From NCBI RefSeq assembly GCF_049337375.1, contig NZ_JBMPIV010000015.1: DNA of 35,397 nucleotides; one strand, written 5' to 3'. The notes under the pieces are model-generated. The model worked only from the letters and a program-made list of their open reading frames with translations. It made no database searches and had not been told where the DNA came from. The position numbers were made by a program, and so were the translations under genes. Below, piece by piece: positions 1,042-33,435 of this stretch. Each line of letters opens with the position of its first letter. Positions within the stretch are counted from its first letter, which is position 1. This DNA is from Nannocystis pusilla. GTDB taxonomy: Bacteria > Myxococcota_A > Polyangia > Nannocystales > Nannocystaceae.

Positions 1042-1821
1042 CTAGCCGCTGCAGGGGCCGCCCTGGGCGACCCAGCCGTCCTGGCCGCAGACGTAGTACT
1101 GAAAATTCTCGCCGCAGACCTGATGGCCGCATTCGGTCGCATACACGGTGTTGCCGAGGTAGTCCTTGCCGCCGGGGCAGTCGCAGCCGTCGTCGCCGCC
1201 GCAGACGCCGCCCTTGGCGACCCAGCCGTTCGGCTCGCAGGCGTAATACTGGAAGTCTTCGCCGCAGATCTGCTGGTCGCAGGCGGTCGCGTGCACGGGG
1301 TTGCCGAGGTTGTCAGTGCCGTCGGGGCAGTCGCATTCGTCGCCGTCGTCGTCGCCGTCGCCGCAGACGCCGCCCTGGGAGACCCAGCCGTTTTGCCCGC
1401 AGACGTAGTAATGGAAGTCCTCGCCGCAGACCTGGTGGCCGCATTCGGTGGCGTTCACGGTGTTGCCGAGGTAGTCCTTGCCGCCGGGACAATGGCAGCC
1501 GTCGTCGCCGCCGCAGACGCCGCCCTGGGCGACCCAGCCGTCCTGGCCGCAGACGTAGTACTGGAAGTCTTCGCCGCAGACCTGATAGCCGCAGACGTCG
1601 GTGTCCACGGGGTTGCCGAGGTGATCGGTGCCGCCGTCGCACGGACACCCGCCGCCGTCGCGCAGGTCGATCGCGGACGCGTCGGCGCGCGCGGCTGGCT
1701 GGTCGTCGCAGGCCAGCGGCGCGAGCACGGAGGCGCTCAGCAGCAGGGCGGCGCCGAGGCGCGAGGCGGAGAGGAGACGGCGCGAGAGCGAGGCGTGAGG
1801 GCGCGTGAAGGTGATGGACAT
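1042..1821 (-). CDS. secreted lipoprotein made of four tandem ~50-aa cysteine-rich repeats (CxCPGGKDYLGNTVxATECGHQVCGEDFQYYVCGQDGWVAQGGVCGGDDG)
   Basis: Signal peptide plus lipobox (LAPLAC); AAGGAA Shine-Dalgarno 7 nt upstream of ATG at 1819-1821; four near-identical repeats visible in the translation. Confidence 0.8.
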   Translation of the reverse strand: MSITFTRPHASLSRRLLSASRLGAALLLSASVLAPLACDDQPAARADASAIDLRDGGGCPCDGGTDHLGNPVDTDVCGYQVCGEDFQYYVCGQDGWVAQGGVCGGDDGCHCPGGKDYLGNTVNATECGHQVCGEDFHYYVCGQNGWVSQGGVCGDGDDDGDECDCPDGTDNLGNPVHATACDQQICGEDFQYYACEPNGWVAKGGVCGGDDGCDCPGGKDYLGNTVYATECGHQVCGENFQYYVCGQDGWVAQGGPCSG

Positions 1822-2162
1822 GGACGAATTCCTTGGTGGCCGCGCAGGCTCGCGGCGGGGCGCAGGCGGAGGCCGCCGCCGAGCACGACGCTGGCGTGAT
1901 CCGGCCTCCTGCGGGCATGACAGGCGGACGGATCCGTTGTCGCAGCGCGCGGACGAAAAAAATTTGATCGCGCGTCGGCGCGTGGAGCCGGGGCGTGACG
2001 GGGACAGGACGTCTTTCGGCGGTCAGGGCCGGCCGCCGACCGACGCGATTCACGATCCGGGCTGCGTGCGTATGTCGGAGACGAGCGTGTGAGGCTTCTT
2101 CGCGCGAGGAGTCAGGACGGCGACGGAGGTTCGCGTCGGCCGTGCGGTGATTCCGGCGATCG

Positions 2163-2310: not shown

Positions 2311-3330
2311 CGCGAGGTCGGGTGCGGGCAGGCCGGCGCGCCGTTCGAGGGTCTCGTCGAGGATGGGAGGATCGCGGAGAGCGAGGACGGCGCGTGAGCG
2401 GGCCGCGAGGACTCGAGTTCGTTCGTCGGCGCTCAGGCGGGGGGCGAGCCAGGCGTCGACGGCCCAGGCGAGGTCGGCGTGGGCGGCCTCGTCGGCGGCG
2501 ACCTCGGCCATGCAGGCGCGGAGCTCGGGGTCCTCGGCGACTCGCGCCTGGTGGGCGGCGAGCAGGGCGGCCCAGGTCTCGCCGACGCAGCCCTCGACGG
2601 CGTTCTCGAGCGCCAGCTCGACGAGCGAGCGGCTGCGGGCGGGCGCGAGCTCGACGGGGCTGGGGCGGCCGCCGAGGCGCCTGGCGATCGCGCCGAGGAG
2701 GTCGGCGTGGCGGGCCTCGTCGACCGCTGCGCGGAGGGCCGCGGCGATCAGCTCGGCGGGGGCGTGGTGTTCGCGGAGCTCGGCGGCGAGGCGCTCGAAG
2801 GCGGGGACGCTGGCGGCCTCGAGGTGGGCGACTTCGGCGAACCACCGCGCGACGGGATCGTCGCCGCCGCTGCGGCCCTCGGAGCGCAGGCCGGCGGGTC
2901 GCCGGCCGCCCTTGCAGTCGGTCTCGTACTGGCAGCGGATGTCGCTCTTGCTGGCGGGAATGGCGGCGCAACCGAGCACGGTGGTCATTCGCGGGGTGTG
3001 ATCGTCGTCGACGGCGCCGGTGGTCGTCGAGGTGGGGGCGCCGGTGGTGTCGCCGGGGGTCGGGTCGGTGGCCGAGGTGCTCGAGCTCGGGCTGCTCGGC
3101 TCGTCAGGGACAGCCGACGAACGGATCATGGGGCACAGGATCTGGCATTCGGCGAGGGTGAGGTTGCCGTCCTCGATGTAGGGCGCGAGGCGGTTGACGC
3201 CGATCGCAGTGACTTGTTCGCGCGTGCAGGGGTCGTCGGCCCCGCACCCGGACGCGGCGACCCCGGCGAGGATCGAGGCGAAGAGGAGGGGAAGCCGATG
3301 GGCGCCGAGCATGGGTGAGAATTTTAGCAC
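2260..3330 (-). CDS. lipoprotein with C-terminal ferritin-like domain
   Basis: GTG start at 3328-3330 preceded by GGAGGA Shine-Dalgarno at 8 nt; signal peptide plus lipobox (AASGCG); Thr/Ser/Pro-rich linker; C-terminal helical domain with repeated E/H ligand-like motifs (AHLEAASVPAFERLAAELREHH…) typical of the myxobacterial ferritin-like lipoprotein family as I recall it. Confidence 0.75.
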   Translation of the reverse strand: MLKFSPMLGAHRLPLLFASILAGVAASGCGADDPCTREQVTAIGVNRLAPYIEDGNLTLAECQILCPMIRSSAVPDEPSSPSSSTSATDPTPGDTTGAPTSTTTGAVDDDHTPRMTTVLGCAAIPASKSDIRCQYETDCKGGRRPAGLRSEGRSGGDDPVARWFAEVAHLEAASVPAFERLAAELREHHAPAELIAAALRAAVDEARHADLLGAIARRLGGRPSPVELAPARSRSLVELALENAVEGCVGETWAALLAAHQARVAEDPELRACMAEVAADEAAHADLAWAVDAWLAPRLSADERTRVLAARSRAVLALRDPPILDETLERRAGLPAPDLARRLWEALGRELWSAAA

Positions 3331-3420
3331 GTGGCCGATCCTCCGCCGTGCGTGCGAAGGCGGGCAGTCGCTCGGGCGATGTGGTGATTGCGACGGCAGA
3401 GACCGCCGACAGGTGCGCTG

Positions 3421-16148: not shown

Positions 16149-16388
16149 GGAGGACATGTCCGAGAGGACCTGTCTCGTGCGTGCGGAGGTCCGTGGGGAC
16201 ATGTCCTCTCGGACACTCCCGAGGGGACATGGCGGAGCGTCCGCGCGGCGCGCCCGTGCCGGCGCCGCGGGGAGGCGGTCTTTCGGGACATGTCCTTGCA
16301 GACATTTCCGCTGAGCTGGCGTCGGAGCGGCGCTCTCGTGGCCAGTTTTGTGTGTGGTGGTATTTGGGGACATGTCCTATCGGACGTG
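16149..16388. repeat. four repeat-family copies in the convergent intergenic gap between the S41 peptidase and SDR genes
   Basis: GGGAGGACATGTCCGAGAGGACCTGTCTCG; GGGGACATGTCCTCTCGGACACTCCCGAGGGGACATGGCGG; CGGGACATGTCCTTGCAGACATTTC; TTTTGTGTGTGGTGGTATTTGGGGACATGTCCTATCGGACGTGG. Confidence 0.85.
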
Positions 16389-18420: not shown

Positions 18421-20316
18421 CTAGGAGGCGGGGACGGGCTCGGCCCCGAGGTCGCGGGCGAGGTCGGCGAGCTCGCCGATCGGGACCTGCAGCGCGGGCA
18501 GACGGGTGATGTCGGCCCGCGCGGCCTGGGCGATCGACTCGCTGGCGCGCATGATGAGGCCGCCGTTGGCGTCGGCGACGACGGTGTAGCCGGCCTTGCG
18601 CAGGCGGGCGAGCCGGGCCTGGGCGGCGGGGGTGAGGTCGGTGGCGGTGATGCGCAGGGATGGCACGCGGCCGGGCCAGAGGGCGGCGAGGTAGGCGGTG
18701 ATCCGCGGCGGGTAGACGACGCCGCCGGCTGTCTTTTCGTTCAGGTGGACGTCGACCAGCGCGGGGTAGCCGTGCACGTCGCAGCGGACCGCCCCGTGCA
18801 AGTGGCTGGTCCACATCGCCTCGGGGCTGACGGGCGCGGGCCACAGGCGGTCGAACCACGCGGCGATGGCGTCGTAGCTGGGGAGGCGCTGGCCGCCGAG
18901 CGCGTCGCCCAGGCGCTGGACCTCGGCGCCGAACCGCTCGCCGCGCTCCTCCCGGCGCAGGCGCAGGAGGATGGCGAGGACGGCGATGGCGATGGCGGCG
19001 TACCACAGGCCGAACAGCAGCAGCCCGCCGCAGACGATGGCGGCGAACAGGAGGCCGAGGCCGCCGTCGCGGACCTGTTGCTGGCGCCGCTCGTCGGCGT
19101 GGCGCGCCAGGAGGGCGCGGCGAGCGACCGCGAGGGCGCTGGCGGGGATCCGGCCCTCCGGCTCGGGGCCGGCGAGGTCGGGGCGATCGGGGAGGAAGGA
19201 GCGGACGGCGGCGATCAGGTCCCGGGTCGCGGGCGAGGCGGGGCTGTCGGCGGGCTCGCGCACCGCGGCGACCACCAGCGGCGCCTCGGCCAGACCGCCG
19301 GGCGGGGCCGCCAGCCCCGCCGTGGCCGAGGGGGTGCTGAGGCTGGCGCCGGAGCGGTTGGAGAGGATCGCCAGGAGCGAGGAGTTCGACGGGCTCATCG
19401 CGGCGCCCGGGAGGGTGTCGCTGGCGGCCGTCCGCGCGGCCGGGTCGCGGGCGAGGCTGGCCCCGAGGCCAGGTGCCTGCTCGCGCGGGGCGGGCAAGGG
19501 GCCGGACAGCGCGGCGGGGTCGAAGCCGGGAGCGACCGCGGTGCGGAGGCCCGGCGCGGCGGGTGAGCTGTCTGCAGGGACAGGTGATGAGGAGGCGCGG
19601 AGGGCGGCGAGGTGGCTGTCCGAAGGGACAGATGATGGCCGGCTGTCCGTGGGGACAGGCGGGGATCGCGTGGCCGCGGGGTCGAGGTCATGGCTGTCCG
19701 TGGGGACAGGCGGCCGGTGGCTGTCCGCAAGGGCAGGTTGATGGAGGCTGTCCGCAAGGACAGGCGCATCGACGGGCAGGGACAGCTGGGCCGGCTCCGG
19801 CGCGGCGTCGTGCCCGTGGGCGGCCAGGCCCGCGGCCGGCTCGGCCGACAGGGGGCCGGGGCGGGCGTCGGCCCAGCGGCCGGGGCGGGGGCCCTGCAGG
19901 GTGTCGCCGGGCTCGGGGGCGGCGAGCGGAGCGTTGCTGTCTCTCAGGACAGGTCGCAGGGGAGCCGGGACGGCGGGCGGCGGGGCCGGGCCGATCGAGA
20001 GCAGGGTGGTCGGCGGGACGGGCGCGGCGAGCAGCCTGGCCGAGGGCCCGGGCTGGTGGCGCGCGTGGAGCCGCGGGCTCGGCGGCGGGGCCTTGGCGTC
20101 GGGTTCGGGGCTGACCTTCGGGACAGGTGCGCTGTGGACCAGGTCGCTGACGGCCTGCTGGATCGCCCGCTCGTAGAGGGCCAGAGCGTCGGCGACGGCC
20201 GGCGGCAAGCCGTGGGGCTGCCGGCAGGCGGGGCAGTCGGCGGCGTCGCGGAGGTCGGCGAGCGAGAGCGCGTGCTGGCAATGCGGGCAGCGCAACGCGA
20301 GCGTCGGAGAGAGCAC
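18421..20316 (-). CDS. membrane-anchored protein: N-terminal zinc ribbon (CPHCQ…CPAC), long Pro-rich linker containing a six-unit repeat array, one TM helix, C-terminal globular domain of unknown function; 5' end uncertain (GTG 20316 or TTG 20295; the ORF opens at 20754)
   Basis: C-terminal ~220 aa non-repetitive and protein-like (…FDRLWPAPVSPEAMWTSHLHGAVRCDVHGYPALVDVHLNEK…); 4-nt gap to the downstream gene suggests an operon. Confidence 0.5.
   Translation of the reverse strand: MLSPTLALRCPHCQHALSLADLRDAADCPACRQPHGLPPAVADALALYERAIQQAVSDLVHSAPVPKVSPEPDAKAPPPSPRLHARHQPGPSARLLAAPVPPTTLLSIGPAPPPAVPAPLRPVLRDSNAPLAAPEPGDTLQGPRPGRWADARPGPLSAEPAAGLAAHGHDAAPEPAQLSLPVDAPVLADSLHQPALADSHRPPVPTDSHDLDPAATRSPPVPTDSRPSSVPSDSHLAALRASSSPVPADSSPAAPGLRTAVAPGFDPAALSGPLPAPREQAPGLGASLARDPAARTAASDTLPGAAMSPSNSSLLAILSNRSGASLSTPSATAGLAAPPGGLAEAPLVVAAVREPADSPASPATRDLIAAVRSFLPDRPDLAGPEPEGRIPASALAVARRALLARHADERRQQQVRDGGLGLLFAAIVCGGLLLFGLWYAAIAIAVLAILLRLRREERGERFGAEVQRLGDALGGQRLPSYDAIAAWFDRLWPAPVSPEAMWTSHLHGAVRCDVHGYPALVDVHLNEKTAGGVVYPPRITAYLAALWPGRVPSLRITATDLTPAAQARLARLRKAGYTVVADANGGLIMRASESIAQAARADITRLPALQVPIGELADLARDLGAEPVPAS
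19568..19770. repeat. array of six GCTGTCCGNNGGGACAGG(T/C)G units with irregular 27-51 bp spacing, encoding PVPTDS(H/R)-type peptide repeats in the linker of the 18421..20316 protein; more copies at 19935-19955 and 20108-20140
   Basis: read directly from the sequence. Confidence 0.8.
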
Positions 20317-23429: not shown

Positions 23430-23459
23430 GAGTGACATGTCCCCGGGGACATGTCACTC
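23430..23459. repeat. perfect 30-bp palindrome GAGTGACATGTCCCC|GGGGACATGTCACTC built from the repeat core, filling the convergent gap between the M16 gene and the next gene
   Basis: reverse complement equals itself, checked base by base. Confidence 0.9.
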
Positions 23460-25147: not shown

Positions 25148-25228
25148 GAAGACTGTCCGAAGGGACAGGTGGTCGTGGCGAGCCGGTCGGTCGAGGCGAG
25201 AAGACTGTCTGAAGGGACAGGTGGCGGC
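25148..25228. repeat. two direct copies (54-bp period) of GAGAAGACTGTC(C/T)GAAGGGACAGGTGG filling the convergent gap between the PDZ lipoprotein and XRE genes
   Basis: read directly from the sequence. Confidence 0.85.
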
Positions 25229-25963: not shown

Positions 25964-26210
25964 TGAGTGGCGAGAACGTGGCGGAACGCCTGGCCTGCAG
26001 GCGCTGGCGTCGATCAGCAGCGATGCGCGTGGACGCGCGGGCGCCGGAGCGTTGTGGCGGGGACCACACGGATCTGCTCCAGGTTCTGGGTGGGCGAAGT
26101 CGCGCAAGGTCGATCCCCGCAGGCGATCAAGCCGTTCGCGTCGGGACGAGTCGCGCCACGAAGGCGCTCGCGCGCCCGGGTGAGGCTGGGCGTCGGCCTC
26201 GCGTGTCTGC

Positions 26211-26332
26211 GAGGACATGCGCGCGAGGACATGCGCGCGAGGACATGCGCGCCAGGGCATGCGCGAGGACATGCGCGCGAGGACATGCGCGCGAGGACAT
26301 GCGCGCGAGGACATGTCCGAGAGGACATGCCC
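26211..26332. repeat. microsatellite-like tandem array, about nine units of GAGGACATGCGCGC (14 bp), ending in GAGGACATGTCCGAGAGGACATGCCC. An expansion of the repeat-family half-site
   Basis: read directly from the sequence; lies just 3' of the stop at 26347. Confidence 0.9.
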
Positions 26333-29553: not shown

Positions 29554-30204
29554 ATGGCGGACCCGAACGGCGAGCCGCGGCGAGCCGCGGGGGTCCCCAG
29601 GTGGGTGCCCGCGGTGCTGCGGTCGGTGGTGATCGGCGGCTATCCGCTGGTCGTGTACCTCGGCATGACGCGCTGGAGCCCGCGCACCCTGGCGCTGGTG
29701 CTGGCGGTGGCGCTGCTCCCGGGGCTTCTGCTGCGCCTGCGCGAGGCCCGGCGCGAGGACCTGTGGCCGGTGCTGCGGGTGCCGCTGTCGCTGTTCGGGC
29801 TGTTCGCGGCGGCGGCGCTGTCGGGCGAGCAGCGGCTGTTCATGGCCCTGCCGGTGCTGGTCAACCTGGGCCTCTTGGCCAACTTCGCCGCCAGCCTGCG
29901 CGGGCCGGTGTCGCTGGTCGAACGGTTCGCACGCCTGCAGGAGCCCGACCTGCCGCCCGGCGGGCCGGCGTACTGCCGCACCTGGACCAAGATCTGGTGC
30001 GGTTTCTTCGTCGCCAACGCGGCCGTCAGCGCCGGCCTGGCGCTGTGGGCCCCGGTGGCCTGGTGGACGCTCTACACCGGACTTTTGGCCTACCTGCTGA
30101 TCGGGGTAATGTTCACCGTCGAGTTCGTCGTCCGCAAGGCGACCTTCCGTCGCTTCGGCGACGGGCTGCCCGACCGCCTGCTCCGCCGACTGCTCCGCGC
30201 ATGA
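29554..30204 (+). CDS. integral membrane protein of the lipid cluster
   Basis: multiple TM helices; stop overlaps the next start (ATGA at 30201-30204). Confidence 0.65.
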   Translation: MADPNGEPRRAAGVPRWVPAVLRSVVIGGYPLVVYLGMTRWSPRTLALVLAVALLPGLLLRLREARREDLWPVLRVPLSLFGLFAAAALSGEQRLFMALPVLVNLGLLANFAASLRGPVSLVERFARLQEPDLPPGGPAYCRTWTKIWCGFFVANAAVSAGLALWAPVAWWTLYTGLLAYLLIGVMFTVEFVVRKATFRRFGDGLPDRLLRRLLRA

Positions 30205-32255
30205 AGTCGTTCGCCCCGCTCGTCCACACCGATCCCGCGGCGCTCGTCGCCGTGGGCGAGGCCGGCGCGCGCACGGCCGGCGAGCTCATGCGCGACGCGA
30301 GGGCCGTCGCGGCGCGGCTGCCGGCGCCGATGCCGGGGAGCGAGGTGCTGGTGGTGTGCGGCGACCGCTACCACCTGGCGGTGACGACCCTGGCGGCGTG
30401 GCTGCGCGGCCACGCGGTCGCGCTGCCGCCCAACGCCCAGCCGGCGGCCGTGCGCGAGCTGGCCGGGCGGCCGTCGGTGGTCGCGCTGCTGCACGACTCC
30501 GACCTGGCCGACGCGCAGGACGTCCGCGAGTGGCTGGAAGGACATGTTTCAGGGGACATGGCCGATCCGACATGGCCCGAAGCGCTGGCGCCCGATCGCC
30601 GGCTGGCGGTCGTGTACACCTCGGGCAGCACCGGCGATCACCAGCCGTGCGCCAAGACGGCCGCGCAGCTGCTCGGCGAGGCGCAGGCGCTGGCGGCCAC
30701 GTTCGCCCTGCGGGCCGGCGAGGTGGCGCTGGCGACGGTGCCGCCGTACCACCTCTACGGGCTGCTGTTCGGGATCCTGGCGCCGCTGGCTGCGGGGGCG
30801 GCGTTCGCCCGCGAGACGCCGCTGCACGCCGAGACGGTGGCCCGGGCGGCGCGGCAGGTGGAGGCGACGGTGCTGGTCAGCACGCCGGCGCACCTGCGCG
30901 GGCTGACGGTGCTGACGCGCGGCGACCTGCCGCCGCTGTCGCGGGTGTTCTCGTCGGGCGCGCCGCTGCCGCGGGCCACCGCCGACGAGCTGCTGACCAA
31001 GCTGGGCCTGCAGGTGACCGAGGTGTACGGCTCGTCGGAGACCGGCGGGATCGGCTGGCGGCGGCACGAGGATGTTTTAAAAGACATGTCCCCGGAGCCA
31101 GCCTGGACGCCGCTGCCGGGAGTGACGGTCGAGGTGGCGGCCGAGGGGCGGCTGCTGCTGCGCTCGCCGTTCTTGGCCCCGGACGCGCCGGTGCCGTACC
31201 CGTGCGAGGATCGCGTCGAGGTCGACGCGCGCGGCGGGTTCCACCTGCGCGGGCGGCTCGACGGGGTGGTGAAGATCGCCGGCAAGCGGGTGGCGGTGGC
31301 CGAGGTCGAGCAGCGCCTGCTGGCGCTGGCGGCGGTGGCCGACGCCGCGGTGGTGGCGGTCGAGTCGCCGGGCGCGCGCGGGCACGAGCTGGTGGCCGCC
31401 GTGGTGGCGCGCGAGGCCGGGCGCGACGCCGCCGAGCTGGTGGCCGAGCTGCGGCGGGCGCTGCTGCCGTGGTTCGACCCGGTGGTGGTGCCGCGGCGGA
31501 TCAAGGTGGTGCCGGCGCTGCCGCGCGAGCCGAGCGGCAAGCTGACGCGGCGCAAGCTGCACGCGCTGCTCGGGCTCGCGGGCGAGGAGGAGAGTGCGTC
31601 GGGTGGCGCGAAGGACATGTCTGTGAGGACAGATGCCGACGCAGCGAGCGCGGGTCCGAGGCTCGGTGGCGCGAGGGACATGTCCGCGGGGACAGAGGCC
31701 GCACCAGAGCGCGGTGGCGCGAGGGACATGTCCGCGGGGACAGAGGCCGCACCGGAGCGAGGTGGCGCGAGGGACATGTCCGCGGGGACAGATGCCGATC
31801 CGGAGCGCGGTGGCGCGAGGGACATGTCCGCGGGGACAGAGGCCCATGGGGCGTCGTGGGGTGTCTCGCGAGACATGTCCGCGGGGACAGGTGGCGCGTC
31901 GGCGTTCGCGCTGGGCGGCCACGCGCGGCGCGACGAGGGCGGGGCGGCGGTGCACGAGGTCGAGGTGGGGGTGCCGGTCGACCTTGCGTTCTTCTGCGGG
32001 CACTTCGACGCGCTGCCGGTGCTGCCGGGGGTGGCGCAGCTGACCGCGCTGGTGGTGCCGCAAGTGGCGGCGCTGCGGCCGGAGCTGGGGCCGCTGAGGC
32101 GGGCGGCGCGGCTGAAGTTCACCCGGCCGATCGCGCCGGGCGACGCGCTGGTGCTGCGGCTCGAGGTCCGCGGGACTCAGGTCCGCTTCTCGTTGGCGCG
32201 GGCCGGCGAGGTGGTCACGGCGGGGGCGCTCGAGTACGAGGCGCGCGGAGGCTGA
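30201..32255 (+). CDS. AMP-dependent synthetase/ligase fused through a 5.5 x 16-aa repeat linker to a FabA/FabZ-like hotdog dehydratase domain
   Basis: YTSGSTG and GSSETGG AMP-binding motifs; FFCGHFDALPVLPGVAQL matches the hotdog dehydratase active-site motif; the true ATG at 30201 overlaps the upstream stop. Confidence 0.8.
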   Translation: MKSFAPLVHTDPAALVAVGEAGARTAGELMRDARAVAARLPAPMPGSEVLVVCGDRYHLAVTTLAAWLRGHAVALPPNAQPAAVRELAGRPSVVALLHDSDLADAQDVREWLEGHVSGDMADPTWPEALAPDRRLAVVYTSGSTGDHQPCAKTAAQLLGEAQALAATFALRAGEVALATVPPYHLYGLLFGILAPLAAGAAFARETPLHAETVARAARQVEATVLVSTPAHLRGLTVLTRGDLPPLSRVFSSGAPLPRATADELLTKLGLQVTEVYGSSETGGIGWRRHEDVLKDMSPEPAWTPLPGVTVEVAAEGRLLLRSPFLAPDAPVPYPCEDRVEVDARGGFHLRGRLDGVVKIAGKRVAVAEVEQRLLALAAVADAAVVAVESPGARGHELVAAVVAREAGRDAAELVAELRRALLPWFDPVVVPRRIKVVPALPREPSGKLTRRKLHALLGLAGEEESASGGAKDMSVRTDADAASAGPRLGGARDMSAGTEAAPERGGARDMSAGTEAAPERGGARDMSAGTDADPERGGARDMSAGTEAHGASWGVSRDMSAGTGGASAFALGGHARRDEGGAAVHEVEVGVPVDLAFFCGHFDALPVLPGVAQLTALVVPQVAALRPELGPLRRAARLKFTRPIAPGDALVLRLEVRGTQVRFSLARAGEVVTAGALEYEARGG
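30537..30584. repeat. repeat-family copy (GAAGGACATGTTTCAGGGGACATGGCCGATCCGACATGGCCCGAAGCG) in-frame in the ligase, encoding EGHVSGDMADPTWPEA just before the YTSGSTG motif; a second copy at 31071-31099 encodes DVLKDMSPEP
   Basis: atypical codons (gtt tca, aca, gaa, tta aaa). Confidence 0.7.
31603..31905. repeat. tandem array of about 5.5 units of 48 bp, each GGTGGCGCGAGGGACATGTCCGCGGGGACAGAGGCCGCACC(A/G)GAGCG(C/A), encoding (ERGGARDMSAGTEAAP)n between the ligase and dehydratase domains
   Basis: read directly from the sequence; not CRISPR-like because the units have no unique spacers. Confidence 0.9.
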
Positions 32256-32269
32256 GGCGGTGCGTATGG

Positions 32270-32403
32270 CCGAAGGGGCAGGTCGTTGCCAGATGTCCGG
32301 GAGGACAGGTCGTCCGCCGACGGTCGGCGGGCGGGGTGCGCCCCGCGGCGGGAGGCGGGCATGAGCGCGGACGGAGGCCAGGATGTGTCCCGAGGGACAG
32401 GTG
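32270..32403. repeat. repeat copies in the ligase/GT2 intergenic region and in the first 15 codons of GT2 (CCGAAGGGGCAGGTCGTTGCCAGATGTCCGGGAGGACAGGTCGTCC; GGATGTGTCCCGAGGGACAGGTG)
   Basis: read directly from the sequence. Confidence 0.75.
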
Positions 32404-33186: not shown

Positions 33187-33252
33187 GAGAGGACAGGTTC
33201 GATCGGCCATGGCTCATCAGGCAGGTGCGGGGGGACATGTCCCGGAGGACAA
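33187..33252. repeat. repeat copy (GAGAGGACAGGTTCGATCGGCCATGGCTCATCAGGCAGGTGCGGGGGGACATGTCCCGGAGGACAACC) between the GT2 and acyltransferase genes
   Basis: read directly from the sequence. Confidence 0.75.
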
Positions 33253-33263
33253 CCGGGCCGGGG

Positions 33264-33435
33264 CCGCGGCGGGCGAGCGCGGGGCGGGCGTGCCGGCGAC
33301 CGCCGCCGGGCAGGGGAGCGAGCGCGAGGCGGGCGGCGCCGCGGCGGGCGAGCGCGGGGCGGGCGTGCCGGCGACCACCGCGGGGCAGGGGAGCGAGCGC
33401 GAGGCGGGCGGCGCCGCGGCGGTCGAGGGCGACCG
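33264..33435. repeat. 75-bp tandem duplication (2.3 units) encoding (AAAGERGAGVPATAAGQGSEREAGG)n upstream of, or inside a 5' extension of, the acyltransferase gene
   Basis: read directly from the sequence. Confidence 0.85.

Follow-up and report, generated by a model that had tools for sequence, protein, structure and literature searches.

Rickettsia palindromic elements (RPEs) are about 100 to 150 bp long. Coding minisatellites or VNTRs are exemplified by the mycobacterial MIRU-VNTR loci and by intragenic tandem repeats of surface proteins (see also PMC2996958). Di Nocera et al. (2013; PMC3733652) described superfamilies of GTAG- and CGTC-tagged REPs, a minority of which lie wholly inside ORFs; intragenic REP clusters were reported to encode 43 to 82 aa in Thauera and R. 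conorii, as was double REP insertion into a single ORF. The same paper cites Ogata et al. (2000) for RPEs, which in its summary are palindromic repeats lying in frame in genes of functional proteins. Among the papers searched, none on palindromic or REP elements of Nannocystis or myxobacteria was relevant. The array described here, located in a 35,397-nt stretch of Nannocystis pusilla DNA (contig NZ_JBMPIV010000015.1 of assembly GCF_049337375.1; hereafter the window), is a clear yet not unprecedented case of a “junk” repeat turned protein, of a known kind: intragenic REP/RPE-like insertion combined with a coding minisatellite. We hold with good confidence that it is an in-frame minisatellite of REP-like palindromic repeat copies lodged in the disordered tether of a ligase-dehydratase fusion, with the following features.

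30201 to 32255, plus strand: single gene, a fusion of ANL (AMP-dependent) ligase and hotdog dehydratase, 684 aa plus stop (ORF; the start, MKSFAPLV, matches orthologue starts).
30237 to 31541, plus strand: AMP-binding and AMP-binding_C domains, residues 13-447 (PF00501, PF13193; GC3 0.96).
30540 to 30577, plus strand: element-derived segment in the ligase domain, made of three 14-nt units; its 42 nt encode GHVSGDMADPTW (GGACATG-N7-GGACATG, 0 and 1 mismatches).
31070 to 31095, plus strand: second element-derived segment in the ligase domain; it encodes DVLKDMS, uses TTA and AAA codons, and is a clean hairpin in both L003 and L006.
31584 to 31901, plus strand: predicted disordered inter-domain linker, residues 462-567 (AlphaFold2 pLDDT <50, no secondary structure).
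31602 to 31664, plus strand: unit 1, 63 bp, core GGACATGTCT, ancestral (79% identical to the reference unit and 88% to its closest, unit 1 of L008).
31665 to 31808, plus strand: units 2-4, 3 x 48 bp, strain-specific recent expansion (mutually 90-98% identical; TRF period 48).
31809 to 31859, plus strand: unit 5, 51 bp, probably ancestral (90% identical to unit 2 of L008; alignment).
31860 to 31907, plus strand: unit 6, core AGACATGTCC, ancestral last unit (closest to unit 2 of L002, 83%).
31908 to 32243, plus strand: probable hotdog-fold dehydratase domain, residues ~570-681 (Pfam, AlphaFold2 model; GC3 0.97, re-phased).

The ligase was recognized by PF00501 (E = 1.2e-29, 103.7 bits) and PF13193 (E = 1.1e-11, 45.9 bits), both above cut-off, and matches to ANL ligase structures in the PDB stopped at residue ~453-467. 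For the dehydratase, a FabA-like/ApeI-like Pfam match spanned residues 590-661: PF07977 (FabA) scored 23.6 bits against a cut-off of 23, whereas PF22818 (ApeI-like) reached 23.1 bits where 28.5 is required; orthologues carry precomputed PF22818 matches. Both enzyme domains were modelled with confidence by AlphaFold, which agrees with Pfam in placing the linker between them, as first described, and the strands and long helix (609-625) of the C-terminal model are compatible with a hotdog fold. The same fusion was found in >100 homologues, from which the repeat is absent. By its neighbourhood, read from the ORFs of the window and the gene calls in syntenic loci L007 and L008 (KR, ACP, GT2, LpxL-like acyltransferase, aromatic ammonia-lyase, 4HBT thioesterase, LolA-like protein, and MMPL exporter), the host gene belongs to an aryl-polyene/flexirubin-type cluster (pigment pathway). 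The ligase and ApeI-type dehydratase components of such clusters share the gene neighbourhood seen here, with the caveat that the ApeI-like match in the window falls below the Pfam cut-off. Aryl-polyene clusters in general are covered by PMC8253772, which is background for the host gene only and does not deal with the repeat linker.

A repeat search of the assembled sequence found six in-register copies at 31602-31907 (starts 31602, 31665, 31713, 31761, 31809, and 31860), spaced by 63, 48, 48, 48, and 51 nt and 79, 98, 100, 93, 88, and 79% identical, in order, to the reference copy. Each is built on the core GGACATGTCC-N4-GGACA, as the preliminary description had proposed: the 10-bp perfect palindrome GGACATGTCC is exact in four units and has one mismatch in two, and together with the following N4-GGACA it forms the hairpin TGTCC-N4-GGACA. 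TRF reported a repeat at 31664-31844 of period 48, with 3.8 copies, 94% matches, 0 indels, and a score of 327. The tandem array first described as about 5.5 units of 48 bp is thus real, but only four of the six units are near-identical 48-bp units; the outer two, with 63- and 51-bp spacing, are more diverged and are older, so that the 48-bp units stand between flanking units of 63 and ~48-51 bp. In alignment, the 48-bp unit corresponds to the 63-bp unit minus 15 nt. All spacings are multiples of 3, and the array occupies residues ~468-569 of one unbroken ORF in the same frame as both domains, as was also anticipated. Its translation reads GGAKDMSVRTDADAASAGPRL, GGARDMSAGTEAAPER twice, GGARDMSAGTDADPER, GGARDMSAGTEAHGASW, and GVSRDMSAGTGGASA, units 2-4 encoding GGARDMSAGT(E/D)A(A/D)PER; a tryptic peptide from the array would be, for example, DMSAGTEAAPER. 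That the array separates two genes was considered and rejected, there being no stop codon, the same frame on both sides, and a fusion conserved in distant homologues.

Unit number, suspected from the outset to be polymorphic, differed widely when the linker was compared between fixed anchors in eight other Nannocystis genomes (L001 to L008, of which L001 is a strain ~98% identical to the window). The window has 140 aa and 6 cores, versus 94, 77, 99, 97, 73, 131, 113, and 97 aa and 3, 2, 3, 3, 0, 4, 4, and 2 cores in L001 to L008, respectively; L010, a further relative, has an empty linker site of 38 aa, and across 11 sequences the range was 0-6 cores and 38-140 aa. Units 1, 5, and 6 have positional orthologues, and in six genomes the core after unit 1 keeps the same 63-nt spacing from it. 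Units 2-4 resemble one another most closely (98, 92, and 90%); nothing in L001 to L008 corresponds to them, and they are private to the window strain. The polarity and recency of the change are supported by the empty site in L010, the 0-4 cores in the eight genomes, and the private units 2-4. The claim of a recent expansion was borne out in this respect, with the amendment that the array grew from an older arrangement already in the genus: the comparison of orthologues shows that two to three units were present in the ancestor of the N. pusilla/exedens group, and that here a 63-bp unit lost 15 nt, three extra copies of the shortened 48-bp unit then being added. The near-identity of units 2-4 could come partly from gene conversion rather than very recent duplication.

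The linker also departs from its flanking domains in base composition. The codon-position GC signal was lost over 31605-31875, GC3 was 0.76 in the linker versus 0.96-0.97 in the domains, and the rare codons Thr-ACA, Arg-AGG, and Gly-GGT were present; ACA accounts for 6/6 linker Thr codons, versus 3.7% of Thr codons in confident genes. These rare codons and the low GC3 point to an origin of the linker sequence at the DNA level, as do the over-representation of the core, its mostly noncoding location, and a second gene that reads it on the other strand and in a different frame.

The core of the array belongs to a REP-like palindromic repeat family spread across the genus Nannocystis, whose basic unit has a 14-bp period, GGACA-TGTCC-N4. 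In the window, 22 cores were observed versus 0.83 expected, 38 hairpins versus 1.12, and 41 matches to GGACATG-N7-GGACATG (35 kb) versus 0.16, a 25- to 250-fold over-representation of the core. Seven of the nine main element clusters lie in gaps without coding signal. Members outside the fusion gene are as follows.

16152 to 16386, unstranded: family members clustered in the intergenic gap that separates convergent genes (core and hairpin matches).
19569 to 19762, minus strand: in-frame hairpin cluster in gene 18421-20316 (minus), within the linker of the hypothetical Zn-ribbon/TM protein that it encodes, with PV(P/L)xDS motifs and including a 27-bp-period array.
23433 to 23456, unstranded: perfect 24-nt double palindrome TGACATGTCCCCGGGGACATGTCA between convergent genes (core and hairpin matches).
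25154 to 25219, unstranded: two hairpins 3' of a gene end (hairpin matches).
26204 to 26332, unstranded: intergenic family array of the native 14-bp period, ~9 units (TRF period 14, 8.9 copies).
32294 to 32399, unstranded: two hairpins between the ligase-dehydratase stop and a glycosyltransferase, the second overlapping the probable GT2 start.

Within the fusion gene itself there are three element sites, all in frame, and in-frame copies occur in other ORFs too. The segment at 30540-30577 is clear in all orthologues, with a dip in pLDDT, and distant homologues are ~9 aa shorter at the segment at 31070-31095. In the second gene, 18421-20316 (minus), the same core is read in another frame and strand to give PVPxDS; its product matches P0121 (N. 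pusilla) at 100% identity, and the number of motifs varies among full-length orthologues. For the fusion ORF, conservation across species suggests that the element-bearing gene may be functional. The idea that the family seeds in-frame tandem amplification gained two further, independent cases, namely, the 27-bp array in this second gene and a 4 x 21-bp array (MSAGTGE x4) at the called N terminus of the neighbouring glycosyltransferase in L010. A frame filter on ORF-embedded arrays was visible: their periods are 48, 27, and 21 bp, versus 14 bp for the intergenic array, which spans 175 nt between anchors here versus 335 nt in L001, a difference of 160 nt that is not divisible by 3, the two strains being ~98% identical. 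Two predicted proteins, P0127 (frame-shifted linker) and P0050 (truncated, frame-shifted ligase), were rejected as evidence for tolerance of frame changes, both coming from one 12.69-Mb assembly that looks error-prone.

In the position frequencies around 72 exact hairpins, (G)ACA precedes the hairpin and GGT follows it, and neither end bears a GTAG or CGTC tag. The elements appear to be oriented on the G-rich strand (GGACAGG 20, CCTGTCC 3) regardless of gene direction, a bias that would fit spread via single-stranded hairpins at the replication fork. Pfam scans of 21 ORFs of the window detected neither a transposase domain nor a RAYT. In folding of the strand against shuffled sequence, one unit was not better (z = +0.88) and three units were modestly better (z of about -2.1 to -2.2); an argument from strong structure was accordingly dropped, and any role of the hairpin in slippage is presumed.

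In metagenomes, the 24-nt double-palindrome form occurred in 91 stretches. Among 76 sites on high-GC metagenome contigs, 19 lay between convergent genes and 26 at gene edges, a placement by which the family behaves like REPs; at 9 of the 76, one frame was open on both sides and encoded GHVxxDMS. The unit 2/3 junction had 0 matches in metagenomes. A scan of viral contigs for the 24-nt double palindrome gave a single match, taken as chance.

Set against the described systems, the Nannocystis family shares with REPs its many copies of a short imperfect palindrome (in the 35-kb window and in metagenomes), located mainly between convergent or co-directional genes, in the window and at the metagenome sites alike, with a minority within ORFs. 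As with intragenic REPs, insertions recur within one gene, here with three element sites in one ORF and a linker array encoding ~100 aa. The family differs in having no GTAG/CGTC tag, a shorter unit whose stems measure 5 bp and whose 14-bp period is chained as GGACATGTCC, a myxobacterial host of ~72% GC with no RAYT gene in the scanned ORFs, and an array that underwent recent strain-specific tandem amplification. The likeness to RPEs, as these are summarized in PMC3733652, lies in in-frame palindromic inserts that lengthen loops or inter-domain regions and apparently leave the protein intact. RPE hosts, however, have reduced AT-rich intracellular genomes, near-identical tandem arrays are not reported for RPEs, and the Nannocystis unit measures 14-24 bp, or 48-63 bp as arrayed, which sets it apart by described RPE length. 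With coding VNTRs, the array has in common head-to-tail units of tens of bp in multiples of 3 and a copy number that varies among closely related strains, presumably through slippage or unequal recombination; unlike repeats in surface proteins under diversifying selection, the Nannocystis unit derives from a dispersed palindromic family and sits in the tether of a cytoplasmic biosynthetic enzyme. MITEs (70-300 bp, with TIRs and target-site duplications) are a poor match: the units are far shorter and chained, and no TIRs or TSDs were recognizable in the inspected copies.

Amplification of the array would most likely have proceeded by slipped-strand mispairing or unequal recombination between adjacent units, perhaps helped by the self-complementary core. 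Because the segment is unstructured and the element lacks stop codons, length changes in multiples of 3 nt would be tolerated and frame-breaking ones removed, and the tether would drift in length between strains, from 38 to 140 aa. We infer that linker length is neutral, and the repeat peptide itself is probably without specific function.

Protein-level selection, in which GGARDMSAGT is a functional module (a motif for docking or modification, say, or a spacer of tuned length) that only incidentally has palindromic DNA, would accommodate the DMS reading frame of the core, kept in all array units and in most Nannocystis orthologues. ANL enzymes show domain alternation, and linker length might matter for handover of substrate from ligase to dehydratase. 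Yet most copies of the core DNA are intergenic and some are read elsewhere in different frames (PVPxDS, GHV), the linker is predicted to be disordered and has non-native codon usage and GC3, and of the 3251 candidates that shared words with the 101-aa linker peptide in a protein database search, none reached E <= 1. The N. radixulma group, moreover, lacks an intact core, and linkers are short and core-free in L010, in L011, and in every distant homologue. We judge selection on the peptide very unlikely. A nucleic-acid role in the operon, whether RNA hairpins that pause ribosomes between the domains or internal initiation that yields free dehydratase, strikes us as highly improbable. Every unit does contain an in-frame ATG, a core ATG or GTG is called as the start codon in neighbouring genes (GT2 in L008), and the family elsewhere sits like REP-like RNA elements, downstream of genes and between convergent genes; but the GAGGG or GGTGG that precedes the ATG of each core stands at poor Shine-Dalgarno-like spacing (2-3 nt or 10 nt), folding is barely above that of shuffled sequence, no Rfam family matched anywhere in the window at gathering thresholds, and orthologues without cores retain the same operon.

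An assembly artefact, affecting either the copy number or the entire 48-bp expansion, could arise by mis-assembly of near-identical units, and a single one of the 48 compared positions distinguishes unit 2 from unit 3; in addition, the exact 684-aa protein has no record in public assemblies or gene catalogues, and exact-protein look-ups (ligase-dehydratase, GT2, a 593-aa neighbour, and P0121) found no independent assembly of the source strain. We nevertheless rate it very unlikely. Each of units 2-5 carries private substitutions, of a sort that artefactual collapse or expansion does not normally produce; the array measures only ~300 bp in all and keeps the reading frame, and eight independent assemblies have multi-unit, variable arrays at the same site. 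An in-frame minisatellite of REP-like copies in a disordered tether is thus the reading that we retain.

The array leaves the understanding of how such repeats arise unchanged. It shows the conversion of repeat DNA into protein in a large-genome, free-living bacterium, where one of three element sites in a gene is newly expanded to a tether of ~100 residues that differs between strains ~98% identical. The linker series of 38-140 aa is a natural experiment on the tether tolerance of an ANL ligase-dehydratase fusion, and for strain typing in Nannocystis, the array and the intergenic members of its family can serve as VNTR markers just as they stand. The family likely causes mis-called start codons and problems of assembly and annotation in 12-Mb Nannocystis genomes. 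More tentatively, and as a proposal that we consider possible but doubtful, the GGACATGTCC-N4 family of 14-bp period may be an undescribed REP-like repeat of Nannocystis and related high-GC soil bacteria, without the GTAG/CGTC tag, that routinely becomes protein (GHVxxDMS loops, N termini, and inter-domain tethers) and then expands or contracts in frame. If so, it would be the equivalent of Rickettsia palindromic elements in a free-living, GC-rich setting and would steadily supply new differences in protein length among strains.

The array comprised six in-register copies of a repeat unit that begins GGTGGCGCGAGGGACATGTCCGCGGGGACAG, within a window of approximately 72% GC. Start-to-start spacings were 63, 48, 48, 48, and 51 nt, and identities to the reference copy were 79, 98, 100, 93, 88, and 79% (units 1 to 6, 5' to 3'). 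Over the central part (31664-31844), TRF reported a period of 48, 3.8 copies, and 94% matches without indels. A perfect 10-bp palindrome, GGACATGTCC (the core), was exact in 4 of the 6 units and carried one mismatch in the other 2; it was followed by N4-GGACA, giving a second, overlapping hairpin, TGTCC-N4-GGACA. As assembled, the array is real, which confirms the preliminary description. Its count of about 5.5 units of 48 bp held for four near-identical 48-bp units but not for the two flanking ones, which were older and diverged; in a unit alignment, the 48-bp form corresponded to the 63-bp form with 15 nt missing from its 3' end. Folding of one unit did not exceed that of shuffled sequence, and for three units the gain was only about 2 sd. 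The hairpin is thus weak, with no special structural drive evident for expansion.

Array and element-derived segments in the host gene
30201-32255, +, ligase-dehydratase ORF of 684 aa containing the array; its start, MKSFAPLV, matches orthologues
30540-30577, +, segment 1 in the AMP-binding domain: three 14-nt units, 42 nt, encoding GHVSGDMADPTW
31070-31095, +, segment 2 in the AMP-binding domain: DVLKDMS, with TTA and AAA codons very unusual for the genome
31602-31907, +, array of six units

Several lines of evidence agreed that the array forms an inter-domain linker between ligase and dehydratase, as had been proposed. AMP-binding and AMP-binding_C Pfam domains covered residues 13-447, and matches to solved ANL ligases stopped at residue ~453-467; a FabA-like match (residues 590-661) was barely over the cut-off and an ApeI-like match barely under it. 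In the frame plot, coding phase was identical before and after the array, and only across 31605-31875 was the GC3 signal missing. An AlphaFold2 model (20-sequence alignment) was confident for both domains, and residues 462-567 had pLDDT <50 and no secondary structure. Dips in pLDDT also occurred at both segments in the ligase domain, which were discernible in orthologues, the second also lying at a gap of distant homologues. The fusion itself was not created by the repeat, since both domains share a single protein in over 100 homologues, which are 560-600 aa long and mostly repeat-free. Gene calls in syntenic loci placed a KR, an ACP, a GT2, an LpxL-like acyltransferase, an aromatic ammonia-lyase, a 4HBT thioesterase, a LolA-like protein, and an MMPL exporter nearby; the cluster is of the aryl-polyene/flexirubin pigment type.

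Unit number had been suspected to be polymorphic, and it ranged from 0 to 6 cores (38-140 aa) across the window and ten related loci.

Linker length (between fixed anchors LHALLGL and VHEVEVGVP) and cores in the window, eight other Nannocystis genomes (L001-L008; L001 is N. pusilla Na p29), and further relatives (L010, L011)
Window: 140 aa, 6 cores
L001: 94 aa, 3 cores
L002: 77 aa, 2 cores
L003: 99 aa, 3 cores
L004: 97 aa, 3 cores
L005: 73 aa, 0 cores
L006: 131 aa, 4 cores
L007: 113 aa, 4 cores
L008: 97 aa, 2 cores
L010 (85% identical): 38 aa, 0 cores, empty site
L011: 46 aa, 0 cores

Units 1, 5, and 6 had their nearest relatives elsewhere (L008 unit 1, 88%; L008 unit 2, 90%; and L002 unit 2, 83%, respectively), and the 63-nt distance from unit 1 to the next core was found in six genomes. 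Units 2-4 were instead nearest one another (98, 92, and 90%) and had no orthologue in L001-L008, bearing out the suggestion that near-identical units reflect recent expansion. By these affinities, the genus already had a 2-3-unit arrangement, to which three 48-bp units, as assembled, were added in the window strain. Against L001, identity was approximately 98% in alignable stretches and alignment broke at repeat clusters. The linker (31557-31976 versus L001:11357-11638) differed at 15% of aligned columns, compared with 1.8% overall and 2.8% at four-fold degenerate sites for both domains; the linker changes much faster than its flanks, with the qualification that four-fold sites in a genome of 96% GC3 are not neutral. 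Relaxed constraint by itself does not obviously account for such a rate; conversion by copies elsewhere or exchange of alleles may be the cause.

The core belongs to a DNA-level repeat family with a 14-bp period rather than being a peptide motif. Judged against dinucleotide-preserving shuffles, the window held 22 matches to GGACATGTCC with up to 1 mismatch (0.83 expected), 38 to TGTCC-N4-GGACA with up to 1 mismatch (1.12 expected), and 41 to GGACATG-N7-GGACATG with up to 2 mismatches (0.16 expected). Most clusters lay in gaps without coding signal, frequently between convergent genes.

Family clusters in non-coding gaps, and a second coding host
16152-16386, cluster
23433-23456, cluster
25154-25219, cluster
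26204-26332, cluster; between two minus-strand genes, 14-bp-period array of ~9 units (GGACATGCGCGCGA)
32294-32399, cluster
33233-33251, cluster
18421-20316, -, hypothetical protein with family hairpins in its linker; an N. pusilla protein matches it at 100% identity

Hairpins in the hypothetical protein also kept its ORF in frame, though they were read from the opposite strand and in a different frame; they encoded PVPxDS and included a 27-bp-period array. This protein is conserved in Nannocystis. It starts with a zinc-ribbon-like CxxC...CxxC motif, continues through a long, variable, Pro/Ala-rich linker packed with hairpins and a TM segment, and has a C-terminal domain that is strongly conserved but matches nothing in Pfam. 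Coding statistics of the ligase-dehydratase linker are non-native: GC3 was 0.76 versus 0.96-0.97 in both domains, all 6 of its Thr codons were ACA, which makes up 3.7% of Thr codons in confidently called genes, and Arg-AGG and Gly-GGT were likewise over-used. GGACAGG outnumbered CCTGTCC by 20:3 in the window and by 11-15 to 0-2 in L001-L006, regardless of gene direction, the G-rich form sitting on the strand of positive GC skew; this orientation bias is suggestive, and it is confounded by GC skew and non-independent tandem copies.

The 24-nt double palindrome GGACATGTCC-N4-GGACATGTCC was found in 91 metagenome stretches, and 75 of the 80 read had GC >0.65 with further copies. By frame plot, the 76 sites in high-GC contigs fell between convergent genes (19), at a gene edge with one-sided coding signal only (26), between co-directional genes in other frames (6), where neither side had coding signal (8), too close to a contig end to classify (8), or within a single open frame that continued through the site and encoded GHVxxDMS (9). 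This profile is that reported for REPs, a minority of which lie inside ORFs (PMC3733652).

Among described phenomena, intragenic REPs (PMC3733652), Rickettsia palindromic elements (RPEs), and coding minisatellites come closest. The family resembles REPs in its gaps between convergent genes, yet it carries neither the GTAG nor the CGTC tag that defines the two described REP superfamilies, and no RAYT transposase was found among window ORFs scanned against Pfam. RPEs are much longer than its units. It is therefore classed as acting in the manner of intragenic REPs or RPEs combined with a VNTR, and it is a member of no named family; the literature searched contained no description of such repeats in Nannocystis or myxobacteria.

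A 75-bp tandem repeat (33254-33431; 2.4 copies, 94%), not palindrome-based, sits just past the element at 33233. Its frame agrees with that of a possible extension of the LpxL-like acyltransferase at the N-terminus (ATG 33210); by BLAST overlap, L001 has one copy more and L002 fewer, and the called product is 328 aa in L007, 351 aa in L008, and 357 aa in L010. Large imperfect tandem repeats (1045-1636; 79-87% matches at periods of 150 and 312 bp), unrelated to the family, lie within ORF 1042-2022(-), which has only weak RING/zinc-finger-like Pfam matches. P0050 and P0127, proteins from one N. pusilla assembly (with a 12,694,743-nt contig), are truncated or frame-shifted internally, precisely at repeat regions or close to them, suggesting indel errors at palindromic repeats in that public assembly. 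The GT2 start apparently lies in or beside a family member in the window (32361-32399; GTG at 32385, 7 nt after GGAGG) and in L008 (8052-8072), where the start is called at the ATG within GGACATGTCC; start calls may often be ambiguous on account of the family.

The proposal that the family seeds in-frame tandem amplification gained an independent instance in L010.

L010:2582-2665 (Logan SRR33471270 contig), 4 x 21-bp tandem array on the family core (ATGTCCGCCGGGACAGGTGAG), encoding MSAGTGE x4

This array lies in the called N-terminus of the glycosyltransferase adjoining the ligase-dehydratase gene (GT2 called 2560-3420), and the true start could be any of its four ATGs; the ligase linker in the same genome is the empty site. 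Family arrays inside ORFs had periods of 48, 27, and 21 bp, and multiples of 3 were confined to these: the intergenic array (26209-26330, within the interval 26204-26332) retained its native period of 14 bp and measured 175 nt between anchors in the window versus 335 nt in L001 (98% identical); the 160 nt that separate the two are not divisible by 3. The preliminary reading as a whole is supported. Established here are a dispersed palindromic family, its occurrence in a tether predicted to be disordered, a relative whose site is empty, extra units specific to the strain, and periods in multiples of 3 only within ORFs. Expansion would have proceeded via slipped-strand mispairing or unequal recombination between neighbouring units, whose near-identity may owe something to gene conversion. 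Changes that keep the frame would be tolerated because the spacer is unstructured, and frame-breaking variants would be purged by selection. The intergenic array at 26204-26332 is a hypervariable locus that could serve strain typing.
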